Below, in pieces: positions 8,513 to 11,360 of a stretch of 16,911 nt of DNA (its first letter is position 1; every line of letters starts with the position of its first letter). Origin of the DNA: a virus. Lineage: Duplodnaviria > Heunggongvirae > Uroviricota > Caudoviricetes. The position numbers and the translations under genes were made by a program. Location: the IMG/VR virus record IMGVR_UViG_2872164251_000008. One strand, written 5' to 3'. Under the pieces are notes generated by a model that saw nothing but the letters and a program-made list of their open reading frames with translations, made no database searches and had not been told where the DNA came from.

Positions 8513-9670
8513 TTAATCGTCGTCTTCCGGCAGTTCCAGAATCTTGATCGCGTTCGAATCCACCACGCCACCGCCTAAATATTTTTGCGTGAAAATTTTG
8601 ATGAATCCTGGTTCTGTCAGGTTGTCCGGTCTGGTGCGAACACCTGTTTCGTGATCAACAATGTAGTAACCGCGTTTGAAGTCACCCAGGGCAATAACGT
8701 TATCAGGCATAAACTCCAGATATTCGACCGGAAGGCCCAGCAACGTATCAGGATCACCCGCCTGTAAACGGTCGCGCCAGATATAATCACCGTTCGCGTT
8801 CTTCACCTTCTGAAGTTTTGCCGCCGTCGTGGAGTTAACCACCCAGACCGCGTTTTTGCGGTATTTTTTACGTAATGCAAATTTCAGGTCGATCAGCGGG
8901 TCCGCAGATGTCCACGCCAGAGATTCGGAAGGTTTAATTACCTGCAACGTACCAAAATCACGCTCTTTGTCGTTCTTCTCTGCACGGGGTACGGATAAAA
9001 AACCTTTTGCTTTTTTGTCACCGTCGCCCACAACCAGATCGCTTTCTTCGGTTTCCGTGAAGGTGTCGCCAATCTCACCCGTCAGCCATGAAAGGATGTC
9101 CACATCGGAAAAATCCACGATTTCCTGTGTGGTGCGCGGGTACGCATAGACCGGATACAGCTTAATGCTCACCTCGTTAATCTGCGGGGTGCTGGTCTGT
9201 TCGCGTGCCTTACCCTCTTCACCGTGGTTAACGGTCGCACCGCCAGCGGAAACAAGCTGCTTAAACTCGTTGCTGCTGATTTTCTTCACGGTACAGATGC
9301 GGCGCATAGTGGATTCATCCGCCAGCATTCGCATGATTTCGGTGTTCAGTTCAGGGATAACGGTATAACCACCATCAGCGGGAACGCCTGTACTTAATGC
9401 GCGGGTTTCACCGGTCAGAATGTAGTTGCGTAGTTCTGCGGGGTCAGTGGTCTGGCTGCTTTTACCTGGCTTGCTGCGCTCTTCGTCTGCAATGGCTTCA
9501 AGGCGGGAAATGTCTTTATCGAGGGATTCAGCTTTAGCGCGTAATTCGTCAAATTTTGCGCCCTCAGCATCGTTAAGACTGCGGTTTTCTTTTTCAGCGT
9601 TCTCCAGCATGTCGCGCATCTGATTTTTAATGGCGGTTTTCTGCTGGCGTAATTCGATTATTCTCTGCAT
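8513..9670 (-). CDS. major capsid protein, HK97 fold, with N-terminal coiled-coil (delta/scaffold-like) region
   Basis: ORF track 8513..9670 (385 aa). Charged coiled-coil N-terminus followed by a capsid-like body. AGGA Shine-Dalgarno 7 nt upstream of ATG. Confidence 0.9.
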   Translation of the reverse strand: MQRIIELRQQKTAIKNQMRDMLENAEKENRSLNDAEGAKFDELRAKAESLDKDISRLEAIADEERSKPGKSSQTTDPAELRNYILTGETRALSTGVPADGGYTVIPELNTEIMRMLADESTMRRICTVKKISSNEFKQLVSAGGATVNHGEEGKAREQTSTPQINEVSIKLYPVYAYPRTTQEIVDFSDVDILSWLTGEIGDTFTETEESDLVVGDGDKKAKGFLSVPRAEKNDKERDFGTLQVIKPSESLAWTSADPLIDLKFALRKKYRKNAVWVVNSTTAAKLQKVKNANGDYIWRDRLQAGDPDTLLGLPVEYLEFMPDNVIALGDFKRGYYIVDHETGVRTRPDNLTEPGFIKIFTQKYLGGGVVDSNAIKILELPEDDD

Positions 9671-9825
9671 AAAAAAGTCCTGGGGTTAAGTAAGGAACTC
9701 CAGGACGCGGCAAACACTCAACCGTTTTTCATAAGGAAATCAGTAATCGCACCGATCGTTTTCCCGCCTGGTAATGAATATTGGCGAGCACATTAACAGG
9801 CGGGAAAGTGGCCCCAGCGTCCTGG
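9671..9825 (-). promoter_or_regulatory. capsid operon 5' leader with terminator/antiterminator-like alternative pairing and a 17-bp-arm inverted repeat
   Basis: On the mRNA, GCGUCCUGG (9708-9700) can pair either with an upstream CCAGGACGC (9825-9817, 9 bp) or with the downstream CCAGGAC (9683-9677, 7 bp). The downstream arm contains the capsid Shine-Dalgarno and is followed by U6 directly before the AUG. A separate inverted repeat TTTCCCGCCTGGTAATG / CATTAACAGGCGGGAAA spans 9760-9807. Confidence 0.4.
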
Positions 9826-9861
9826 CACCACGGGCGAGAATAATCATGATTCAGTTCGGGT

Positions 9862-9930
9862 AAAATATGCCGATCCGCTCAGTGAACAACGTGGAACAAC
9901 CACGAACAAATAATTTACAAAAAATAACAA
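9862..9930 (-). promoter_or_regulatory. candidate capsid-operon promoter (-35 TTGTTC, 16-bp spacer, -10 TATTTT on minus strand) overlapping five phased TTGTTC-type repeats (9884, 9894, 9904, plus degenerate 9915, 9925)
   Basis: Direct reading. The promoter hexamers are weak matches and are not verified. Confidence 0.35.
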
Positions 9931-9950
9931 AAAGCCGGATTGCTCCGGCT
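9920..9950 (-). terminator. rho-independent terminator (AGCCGGA-GCAA-UCCGGCU then UUUUUGUUAUUUUUU)
   Basis: Perfect 7-bp GC-rich stem, 4-nt loop, U-rich tail on the minus strand. Confidence 0.65.
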
Positions 9951-9969
9951 GTATGTGCTGTATGGGTGC

Positions 9970-10194
9970 TCAGTCTCTGATCCCTTTCAGAAATTCTATC
10001 AATGCATCTGTCTGTTCAGGATTTACTGCCAGCATTTCACCGGATAGCGCGCAACGAACAAAACCATGATGATCCTTTTCAATCAGCGCCCCCGTTTCCA
10101 GAAATGCGCGGTAATCAGTGATATTCATCGTCTCCATGTTGTCAGCATGGTATTTATCACGCTGTTTAAGTATCTCATCAAATTTCATCGGCAT
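9970..10194 (-). CDS. hypothetical protein (74 aa from MPMKFDEILK…), bracketed by two identical terminators
   Basis: ORF track 9970..10272. The internal ATG at 10194 has a GAGGA Shine-Dalgarno at 7 nt, whereas the first ATG abuts the terminator U-tract. Confidence 0.5.
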   Translation of the reverse strand: MPMKFDEILKQRDKYHADNMETMNITDYRAFLETGALIEKDHHGFVRCALSGEMLAVNPEQTDALIEFLKGIRD

Positions 10195-10285
10195 TGCGTT
10201 TTCCTCTGTTGTGTCTGTTTGTTTCAGATAGTAACTATGCCGGACCGTGACGAAAAGCCAGTAGTGCTCCATACCGTTTCAAATG

Positions 10286-10313
10286 ACGCAAAAAAAGCCG
10301 GATTGCTCCGGCT
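10286..10313 (-). terminator. rho-independent terminator, hairpin identical to the one at 9933-9950, followed by UUUUUUU
   Basis: Same 18-nt hairpin AGCCGGAGCAATCCGGCT followed by a T7 run on the minus strand. Confidence 0.65.
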
Positions 10314-10326
10314 TCGTGGTGTGGTT

Positions 10327-10497
10327 CTGATATTCCTACTCTGCTAATTTGCTCAGCCCCATGTCTGCGTAAGTGCGATTTACTGCATTTCTCAGGTCTG
10401 CGTAGTTCTCCGTTGGCGGCTCCGGTGTGCCCTTGCTGCTCTGTTTTACCAGCGGGTCGCCCACCAGCCGCCCGTAAGCTGCAATTTGTGCTGTCAT
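10327..10497 (-). CDS. hypothetical small protein (56 aa), not in the supplied ORF track
   Basis: Open frame found by hand: MTAQIAAYGRLVGDPLVKQSSKGTPEPPTENYADLRNAVNRTYADMGLSKLAE. ATG at 10495-10497 preceded by GAGGTGG. Fills the gap between the 101-aa ORF and the terminator. Confidence 0.35.
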
Positions 10498-10506
10498 ATT
10501 GCCACC

Positions 10507-11129: not shown

Positions 11130-11360
11130 TCCCCTTGTCTACCTTAGTGGCCCTCATGCCAGTAATGGCGCTGCTTTCAGCGGGGTAGAGTGCTTTTATC
11201 CACTATCTACCCCGTGTCTACCTCCCTGTCTGATTCAGGTAAAATCAGGTAGAGAGGGTAGATAGTGGGTAGACAGTAAAAAAAGGCTACCTACCTAACT
11301 TAATGCACTGAATTAAATGTATTTTTCTTTACTCAGGTAGATAGGGTAGACAGCAATTAC
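11130..11360. repeat. candidate replication origin: cluster of GGTAGA iterons in both orientations with interspersed AT-rich stretches, immediately 3' of the primase-helicase gene
   Basis: GGTAGA at about 11184, 11248, 11257, 11268, 11336, 11345. Inverted TCTACC at about 11138, 11206, 11217, 11287-11296. AT-rich runs at 11274-11285 and 11300-11330. Confidence 0.55.

Follow-up and report, generated by a model that had tools for sequence, protein, structure and literature searches.

How does a phage satellite that makes its own capsids control when the capsid gene is expressed? Phage-inducible chromosomal islands of the capsid-forming kind (cf-PICIs) build their own capsids, and helper phages supply the tails only. 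We have addressed the question in a 16,911-nucleotide stretch of viral DNA (IMG/VR record IMGVR_UViG_2872164251_000008; the whole stretch is referred to below as the window, and all positions are counted along it). Gene layout and Pfam matches identify the window as an EcCIEDL933-like cf-PICI, a satellite of Escherichia coli phages, in which every island gene lies on the minus strand. The element under study is the leader of the capsid operon, predicted to be about 160 nt long, which precedes the major capsid gene (8513–9670, minus strand; a 385-aa protein of the HK97 type that matches Pfam Phage_capsid). This leader probably gates capsid production. We propose, tentatively and at somewhat under an even chance, that it is a two-state RNA in which a short segment close to the ribosome-binding site has two possible partners, the choice of partner switching capsid expression.

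The leader is described here in the mRNA sense, that is, along the minus strand. At its predicted 5' end lies a hairpin, H1 (9831–9808; GUGGU-G-CCAG[GACG]CUGG-G-GCCAC), which is present in the minimum-energy folds and whose apex is formed by the 9-mer CCAGGACGC (9825–9817). Near the other end is a second 9-mer, GCGUCCUGG (9708–9700), here called DS. The two are 100% complementary, with 108 nt between them. DS is shared between two structures: its partner can be either the H1 apex or, through GUCCUGG, the sequence CCAGGAC (9683–9677) in the 3' arm of a hairpin immediately downstream, H4 (9706–9677). H4 consists of the arms GUCCUGGAGUU and AACCCCAGGAC around the loop CCUUACUU; its 11-nt arms (9706–9696 and 9687–9677) are 91% complementary, the loop is 8 nt long and the predicted energy is -14.1 kcal/mol. 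The stem has 10 pairs and one A.C mismatch, and a G-C pair closes its base beside a tract of six U residues (9676–9671) which directly abuts the capsid AUG (9670–9668). The Shine-Dalgarno sequence AGGA (9681–9678) is part of the H4 3' arm, so that this terminator-like hairpin would also sequester it. Between the two 9-mers lie a long hairpin, H2 (9807–9760; -23.5 kcal/mol), with 17-nt arms (9807–9791 and 9776–9760) that are 94% complementary and contain one U.C mismatch, and a weak hairpin, H3 (9757–9738; -5.7 kcal/mol), found by folding and formed by GAUCGGUG and UACUGAUU around CGAU. Processing by RNase III at H2 is unlikely, as the stems are 10–17 bp long and are branched in relatives. Finally, the A-rich element UAUGAAAAA (9733–9725) pairs with the U-tract and AUG (9676–9668) in the minimum-energy fold and is predicted to add a second layer of start-codon sequestration. 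The initial annotation had described much of this arrangement, namely a long-range 9-mer pairing, a 7-nt downstream alternative that encloses the Shine-Dalgarno sequence and is followed by U6 at the AUG, and a 17-nt-arm inverted repeat between the partners. All of these are present on the minus strand, and the mutually exclusive pairing that it had claimed corresponds to a real three-way competition in which a 5' copy and a 3' copy of one motif contend for the complement in the middle.

A further perfect complementarity, of 10 nt, links GAUUAUUCUC (9845–9836) in the predicted -10 region with GAGAAUAAUC (9665–9656) in capsid codons 2–5, and in transcripts reading through from upstream this pairing would enclose the whole leader together with the AUG. 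We do not count it as a leader element: its 5' arm overlaps the predicted -10 and is probably outside the mRNA, and the pairing is weakened without compensation in two kinds of relative (L001-type and L060 in the comparative set described below).

The structure of the leader stands out from that of shuffled sequences. Its full-length energy is -62.8 kcal/mol, compared with -44.5 +/- 3.7 kcal/mol for shuffles (z = -5.0), and 0/200 shuffles were as good. Could the 9-mer complementarity nevertheless be a chance product of a GC-rich, hairpin-rich leader? Random 70-nt partners do reach -17 to -19 kcal/mol with H1 when bulges are allowed. However, an unbroken run of 9 Watson-Crick pairs joining the leader's first 30 nt to its last 60 nt arises in only 0.3% of shuffles (P ~0.003), and the pairing recurs at the same position in leader types of divergent sequence. 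We therefore regard chance as scarcely credible.

When the full leader is folded, the minimum-energy structure contains H1, H2, H3, a small hairpin, H4 and the helix between UAUGAAAAA and the U-tract and AUG; we refer to this as the OFF state. In the window, the probability of being unpaired in this fold is 0.15 on average for the Shine-Dalgarno region and 0.03 for the AUG region. The ON state is the 9-bp pairing of the H1 apex with DS, which costs 8–13 kcal/mol when it is forced upon the complete leader. At nascent lengths of 134–146 nt the minimum-energy fold holds all 9 long-range pairs, while from 149 nt onwards H1 and H4 return. The interval from 134 to 146 nt is the one in which DS has already been made and the 3' arm of H4 has not. 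As modelled, the profile of energy against nascent length is the one expected of a kinetic choice between terminator and antiterminator.

These features can be combined into a mechanism. H1 would form first, and H2 and H3 would then compact the spacer of about 100 nt, bringing H1 and DS together. On emerging, DS could invade H1 from the loop (GACGC:GCGUC). In the ON state the H1 apex CCAGGACGC would capture DS GCGUCCUGG; H4 would be blocked, polymerase would pass the U-tract and the Shine-Dalgarno sequence would be free. In the OFF state H1 would remain closed and DS would be held in H4, with AGGA buried and intrinsic termination at 9676–9671, beside the AUG; any full-length RNA would be poorly translated, with the A-run of UAUGAAAAA also paired to the U-tract and AUG. 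The choice would be kinetic, ON being favoured only between the synthesis of DS and that of the H4 3' arm, and the outcome would be set by anything that opens or holds H1 or that alters the speed of polymerase. The trigger is probably a factor made after induction of the island. The sequences, the predicted energetics, and the way in which H1, H2, H4 and the H1:DS complementarity are conserved and covary have been established here; the start site, actual termination, the switching and the trigger are inferred. A designed altered form of the H1-apex 9-mer CCAGGACGC is CCACCACGC.

The comparative evidence comes from 242 loci with a homologous capsid start, which were collected in one scan of species-representative genomes and five scans of viral contigs, some contigs being fetched repeatedly. 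The genome scan yielded 5 close relatives only, and most of the diversity was contributed by the viral contigs. Two further viral-contig scans for new types of H1 found none, returning only more leaders of types B, C, D and E. The loci (referred to by L numbers where they need to be told apart) fall into six leader types. In type A, which includes the window, the inner stem and loop of H1 read CCAG[GACG]CUGG, and H4 is followed by U6-8. Types B and B' have CUCA[GACG]UGAG and type E has CUCC[GGCG]GGAG at the same place, and all three are without the U-tract. Type C has no homologue of H1 but has its own pairing between the 5' region and the ribosome-binding site, while type D lacks H1 and has a short, unstructured leader.

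H1 and H2 covary extensively across these types. For H1, 98.6% of cells in the alignment of the four types that have it are paired and 6/9 pairs have changed on both sides; for the homologous H2 stem of types B, B' and E, 10/10 pairs have done so. A covariance model built from types B, B' and E only, with type A left out, had the window as its top match (9832–9730; 20.9 bits, E ~6e-5), with H1 and H2 in register. The long-range helix was aligned across types A, B, B' and E by anchoring it on a CGUC core in DS, which pairs with the H1 loop and is invariant in these four types, while the flanks of DS covary with H1. Standard pairs occupy 82.3% of the 384 cells of this helix, compared with 25–50% when the partner is slid by 1–3 columns, and 0/500 shuffles reach either the observed paired fraction or the observed covariation score. 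Changes on both sides were found at 5/12 pairs; one of them (15–46) occurs as U-A, C-G or G-C and is never broken. Type C, although unrelated in sequence, carries CAUGUAGGU at +10 to +18, which is complementary to ACCUACAUG, 19 nt before the AUG, and this pairing is found in its minimum-energy fold. At one and the same position there are thus three different sequence solutions, CCAGGACGC, AGACGUGA and CAUGUAGGU.

The type C leaders L076 and L175 have GGCGGUAG at the beginning of their central hairpin, where L358 has GCGGUGG. We take GGCGGUAG to be the first eight bases of the ops element recognised by RfaH (GGCGGTAGnnTG), whose last two consensus positions are mismatched here.

Might the repeats and palindromes act as DNA rather than as RNA, the CCAGGAC(GC) copies and the H1 and H2 palindromes binding a regulator that overlaps the start site? 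In favour of this, one motif occurs three times, twice in direct and once in inverted orientation; H1, at about +1 to +24, is nearly palindromic; and symmetric changes in a palindrome can mimic covariation. Against this, G.U cells far outnumber C.A cells on the sense strand (9 vs 1 in H1; 14 vs 3 in H2), an excess which points to folding of the sense-strand RNA. In addition, the B' partner of the long-range helix pairs only with a 1-nt bulge, which an RNA helix tolerates and operators do not, and H2 sequences are unrelated between subtypes even though the stem is kept. A role as DNA operators is accordingly very improbable.

Variation within type A is also compatible with a sense-strand RNA. 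Among 18 distinct type A sequences, including the divergent L060 (capsid 69% identical), there is no two-sided change in any pair. The variants include G-C to G.U changes, a change of CC to UU in the H4 3' arm that replaces G-C and A.C by G.U and A-U, and an inner H4 stem that is re-paired in L060. H3, which is specific to type A, shows one-sided, wobble-compatible changes only. Conservation in L060 is found in islands that coincide with the apex of H1, both arms of H2, DS, and the 3' arm of H4 together with the U-run; UAUGAAAAA is invariant in type A except in L060, where it is absent. The folding of relatives also speaks for the switch in two respects. In L060 the long-range state has the lowest predicted energy whatever the length folded. 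In most of the leaders folded, moreover, the Shine-Dalgarno region is predicted to be paired in H4: for the seven besides the window, its probability of being unpaired is 0.00–0.26, except in L195 (0.43) and L060 (0.61), where it is largely open.

Several observations weigh against a switch. The nine long-range pairs are invariant in type A, and there is therefore no covariation for the exact pairing seen in the window. The covariation to which the initial annotation had looked is thus missing within type A, although it does emerge between types, where compensatory changes affect 6/9 pairs of H1 and 5/12 of the long-range helix. Even this cross-type signal represents only 3–4 independent lineages, and H4 offers another explanation for the sole compensatory change within the B/E group. 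The complete leader strongly prefers OFF, and ON is a minor state. In the relatives that were folded, the transient flip to the long-range state is seen in L001, weak in L003, L195 and L219, and absent in L004 and L230; some leaders of types B and E show it only marginally or not at all. With bulges allowed, the duplex energy of H1 with the 3' region has z-scores of -0.04 to -3.6 relative to shuffles, type E being not significant. The U-tract is lineage-specific, being kept throughout type A, L060 included, and absent from types B, B', E, C and D. Type D leaders drive the same operon without any such structure, the start site is itself a prediction from conservation, and no trigger, ligand pocket or leader peptide was found for the leader.

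Some of these points are what would be expected of a fixed leader that does not switch at all. H1 would then be a 5' stem-loop that protects against 5'-end-dependent decay, H2 and H3 would be inert, H4 would exert a constant damping of translation and transcription, and the H1:DS complementarity would either assist folding or simply follow from the presence of one motif in three copies. The clear minimum-energy OFF fold, the predicted position of H1 at the extreme 5' end, the missing trigger, ligand pocket and leader peptide, the modest duplex-energy z-scores and the invariance of the type A 9-mers, which makes them uninformative, are all in keeping with this explanation. It leaves unexplained, however, why each of three or four H1 apex sequences should have a matching DS, why type C should have its own 9-bp pairing from the 5' region to the ribosome-binding site at the same position, and why the ON state should become the minimum just before the H4 3' arm is made. 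A strong terminator that is never relieved would also be an odd thing to find at the AUG of the protein needed in greatest abundance. On balance we consider a fixed leader unlikely, albeit a serious contender.

Which output would the two-state RNA control? H4 has the sequence features of an intrinsic terminator, with a stable G+C-rich stem-loop, a G-C base pair and a U-run directly 3' of it. H4 was missed by a simple scan for terminators, which the A.C mismatch in the stem probably explains. Of the 66 type A loci, 51 have U7 and 14 have U8, and the window is the only one with U6. Leaders of the other types end in ...GGAAACCACUCC-AUG and similar sequences. The features of a Shine-Dalgarno-sequestering operator are found as well: the Shine-Dalgarno sequence and AUG are paired in the favoured fold, and the hairpin is kept in relatives, the consensus fold of types B, B' and E having H4 around GGAAACC with no U-run. 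Since the U-run is confined to type A and the Shine-Dalgarno hairpin is found in types B, B' and E too, translation control is the feature shared by the family. Judged from the leader sequences, sequestration of the Shine-Dalgarno sequence, with an alternative partner for the 5' arm of the hairpin, is the conserved output and termination is an addition made in type A. The conditional control of capsid expression put forward in the initial annotation is therefore upheld in part: the Shine-Dalgarno sequence is buried, H4 is terminator-like and related leaders keep the complementarity between 5' end and ribosome-binding site, but the terminator reading is limited to type A and the conditional character of the control is conjectural.

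The position of H1 relative to the start of transcription matters to all of these readings. A conserved motif, TTTGTAAAT (9913–9921, minus strand; one exact match in the window), lies upstream of the leader and is presumed from its conservation to be an activator site or upstream element of the capsid-operon promoter. The motif TTGTAAAT is found, with at most one mismatch, in 151/151 distinct upstream regions of relatives, and wherever H1 is present (types A, B, B' and E) it follows the motif at a fixed distance of 87–89 nt, whatever the intervening sequence. Within TTTGTAAAT, TTGTAA begins a phased series that continues with three TTGTTC repeats (9909–9904, 9899–9894 and 9889–9884); the spacing over this region (9884–9921), upstream of the predicted -35, is 11, 10 and 10 nt. 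Because the motif is universal in the relatives and fixed at 87–89 nt from H1, the series suggests an array of activator sites. The predicted sigma-70 core promoter (9837–9864, minus strand), as read from the sequence, has a -35 of TTTACC (9864–9859), a 16-nt spacer and a -10 of TATTCT (9842–9837), and relatives have TTTACA or TTTACT, 16 nt, and TATGTT or TATCTT at the same place. A scan of the window for consensus promoters did not call it. The fixed distance between motif and H1 argues for this promoter and for a predicted start of transcription near 9830, which would make H1 the 5'-terminal hairpin and place the upstream 9-mer within it.

Many relatives (L003, L074, L219 and others) have a hairpin and T-run, such as CCCCUGUCUCUGACGGGGGUUUUCUUU, between the TTGTAAAT motif and the predicted -10, whereas the counterpart in the window sits upstream of the motif. 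This hairpin may be the terminator of the upstream gene or an early attenuator.

With the predicted start in place, another explanation can be weighed, in which H4 with its U-tract and the hairpin that follows the capsid gene are terminators of the ordinary kind, and processive antitermination overrides them. This might be brought about by a factor from the island or helper, or in cis by the nascent H1-H2 RNA in the manner of HK022 put, EAR or canT. The put element of HK022 is about 70 nt long and comprises two stem-loops just after PL (PMC9378689), and H1 and H2 are likewise two adjacent stem-loops that occupy the 74 nt (9831–9758) from the predicted +1, a match in topology and size. H1 hardly varies in sequence over 151 type B loci, a constancy suggestive of a macromolecule that recognises it; all types have terminator-like hairpins within the operon; and RNA-based antitermination is frequent in mobile elements (PMC11658703). 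On the other hand, the HK022 genome gives no match to a covariance model of H1-H2-H4, the sequence of H2 varies freely with only the stem being kept, and type C and D leaders have no H1 yet have the same terminator-like hairpin downstream. Moreover, many B and B' leaders have no terminator between promoter and AUG, and the H1:DS complementarity is left unexplained. A protein precedent does not transfer either: the AlpA antiterminator of Pseudomonas aeruginosa has a 21Q-like fold of eight helices, and differs from the 62-aa PF05930 AlpA of the island, so that the shared name is misleading and we rejected it as a Q-like precedent for PICIs. Antitermination is, in our judgement, improbable as the main function of this leader, and we retain the two-state RNA as our preferred reading.

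The hairpin after the capsid gene, GAAGGGGCUAAAAAGCCCCUUU with a U-rich tail (8503–8482, minus strand), lies between the capsid stop codon and the start of the protease gene. The initial annotation had likened it to the capsid leader hairpin. The hairpin and tail are real, but their function is unlike that of H4: there is no Shine-Dalgarno sequence in this hairpin, and a hairpin followed by U-rich sequence is found at the same place, with changed stem sequences, in every leader type and genus sampled. It is a separate, family-wide terminator-like element rather than a second leader device, and we infer that it is a leaky terminator which keeps the capsid protein in excess of protease and portal. 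The annotated protease AUG (8473) follows the terminator-like tail directly and has no Shine-Dalgarno sequence, and an in-frame AUG at 8458 is preceded by GGGUGA (8456–8473, minus strand); from this arrangement, the second AUG may be the true protease start.

The remainder of the window conforms to the cf-PICI layout described for EcCIEDL933 (10.1101/2022.09.08.507074). Pfam matches identify int, alpA, primase, capsid, protease, portal, connectors, HNH, TerS and TerL, and tail and lysis genes are absent. Reading along the minus strand, the integrase (16911–15682) is followed by AlpA (PF05930, 62 aa; 15277–15089), a D5-type primase (13115–11367), the capsid gene, the prohead protease (8473–7901), the portal (7899–6688), and the small (5331–4975) and large (4991–3390) terminase subunits, while phoQ (1–1461) is on the plus strand. 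A copy in O157:H7 is about 94% identical over an 801-nt query covering the leader region and flanks, lies between roxA and phoQ and has the same annotation. An IS1 transposase gene (2642–3145, minus strand) between the large terminase gene and phoQ marks an insertion sequence in the distal accessory region. Just 3' of the primase gene, a cluster of iteron-like direct repeats (11131–11359; GGGTAGA/TCTACC units, in families of 13–21 nt) looks, from its sequence, like the replication origin of the island. A 53-aa open reading frame (10336–10497, minus strand) starts like the single-stranded-DNA-binding protein (SSB) of the O157 copy and ends as a PerC-like C-terminus (PF06069, positions 50–77 of 90). 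The O157:H7 copy has SSB and PerC-family genes separately at this position, and on this comparison the reading frame in the window seems to be a fusion of the two that arose by deletion.

Just upstream of the leader is a small gene (10194–9970, minus strand) whose 74-aa product, orf74, belongs to phrog_1957 and has no assigned function. Near-identical terminator hairpins (GAAGCCGGAGCAAUCCGGCUUUUU) bracket it at 10294–10315 and 9933–9950 (minus strand). We considered orf74 as an obligatory partner of the leader and rejected it, as it is upstream of the capsid operon in 99/226 related loci only, across all leader types and with no link to type.

We found no description of this leader in the literature, including work on termination in PICI packaging operons, and the cf-PICI papers that we read (10.1101/2022.09.08.507074 among them) mention no promoter or terminator for the packaging operon and do not deal with how it is switched on. 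A search of Rfam 15 gave no match at gathering score in the whole window and nothing relevant at E up to 10 in 8300–10500. The leader offers a concrete and mutable handle on control of the packaging operon, since it supplies a likely promoter with its predicted start, the 5' hairpin H1, the shared 9-mer DS and, in H4, a terminator-like hairpin that hides the Shine-Dalgarno sequence. If the two-state RNA is real, capsid production is gated after transcription initiation and could be linked to induction, or to whether a tail donor is present, and the element is a widespread cis-regulatory RNA, counting over 200 loci among the public viral contigs sampled. If it is not, the leader still marks the start of the operon. 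A more ambitious form of the idea, which we regard as a long shot, is that cf-PICIs possess a hitherto undescribed family of RNA switches, each self-contained, that hold back the capsid until a helper or island factor recognises the ultra-conserved H1 and frees its apex to capture the segment near the ribosome-binding site; the E. coli lineage would additionally yield a terminated, U-tailed RNA of about 160 nt, a possible small RNA.

How, then, does the leader compare with known systems? It works like known attenuators and Shine-Dalgarno-sequestering switches, minus the inputs that define them: it has no leader peptide, no ligand domain and no known protein partner. The trp, his and pyrBI attenuators consist of an anti-antiterminator, an antiterminator and a terminator (1:2, 2:3 and 3:4), with a hairpin and U-tract before the first gene. 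The capsid leader similarly has three exclusive pairings (the H1 inner stem, H1 apex:DS and DS:H4 3' arm) and a hairpin and U-tract before its first gene. It differs in that 108 nt and two hairpins separate the competing segments, in that the 3' arm of the terminator holds the Shine-Dalgarno sequence and the U-tract touches the AUG, and in having no usable leader peptide. Attenuation through such a peptide was rejected because the sole open reading frame (AUG 9847–9845, 35 codons) has no Shine-Dalgarno sequence and starts upstream of the predicted transcription start; nor is it conserved, since L060 has GUG in place of the AUG and several type B leaders lack this codon.

In the mRNAs of lambda cIII, which is controlled through RNase III, and Mu mom, which is opened by Com, alternative folds hide or expose the ribosome-binding site. 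The capsid leader shares with these a Shine-Dalgarno hairpin whose 5' arm has an alternative partner, and a setting in a timing-critical gene of a phage or satellite. It differs in having no identified partner of the RNase III or Com kind and in that, in the lineage of the window, the same hairpin is also terminator-like.

HK022 put, EAR, conAn2 and canT resemble the leader in that an operon of a mobile element, with intrinsic terminators inside it, opens at its extreme 5' end with a pair of neighbouring stem-loops of about 70 nt (PMC9378689, PMC11658703). In dimensions it departs from put, with 24 nt in H1 and 49 nt in H2 compared with about 35 nt per put stem, and the sequence of H2 is unconserved. 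When the HK022 genome was searched with the H1-H2-H4 model (R1), nothing matched at E up to 10, and Rfam likewise had no family match in HK022.

The immunity system of satellite P4 depends on the CI RNA, in which seqB pairs with seqA and seqC (as summarised in PMC10111431). Both are satellites with int and alpA in which one leader sequence is complementary to two others and is linked to premature termination. P4 uses this arrangement in its immunity region rather than in a capsid-operon leader, and termination there is Rho-dependent and coupled to translation; no processed small RNA is known for the leader studied here, and there is no Rfam match in the window. Nor does the island contain exact copies of the 9-mer beyond the two that match in the leader, and on this ground we rejected a trans-acting copy of the kind represented by P4 seqA, seqB and seqC.

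The ompA 5' untranslated region, lastly, is a 5'-terminal stem-loop that stabilises its mRNA. H1 resembles it in starting at most one or two nucleotides from the predicted 5' end, and differs from it in having an apex that is complementary to the region close to the ribosome-binding site, a property for which a pure stabiliser would have no need.

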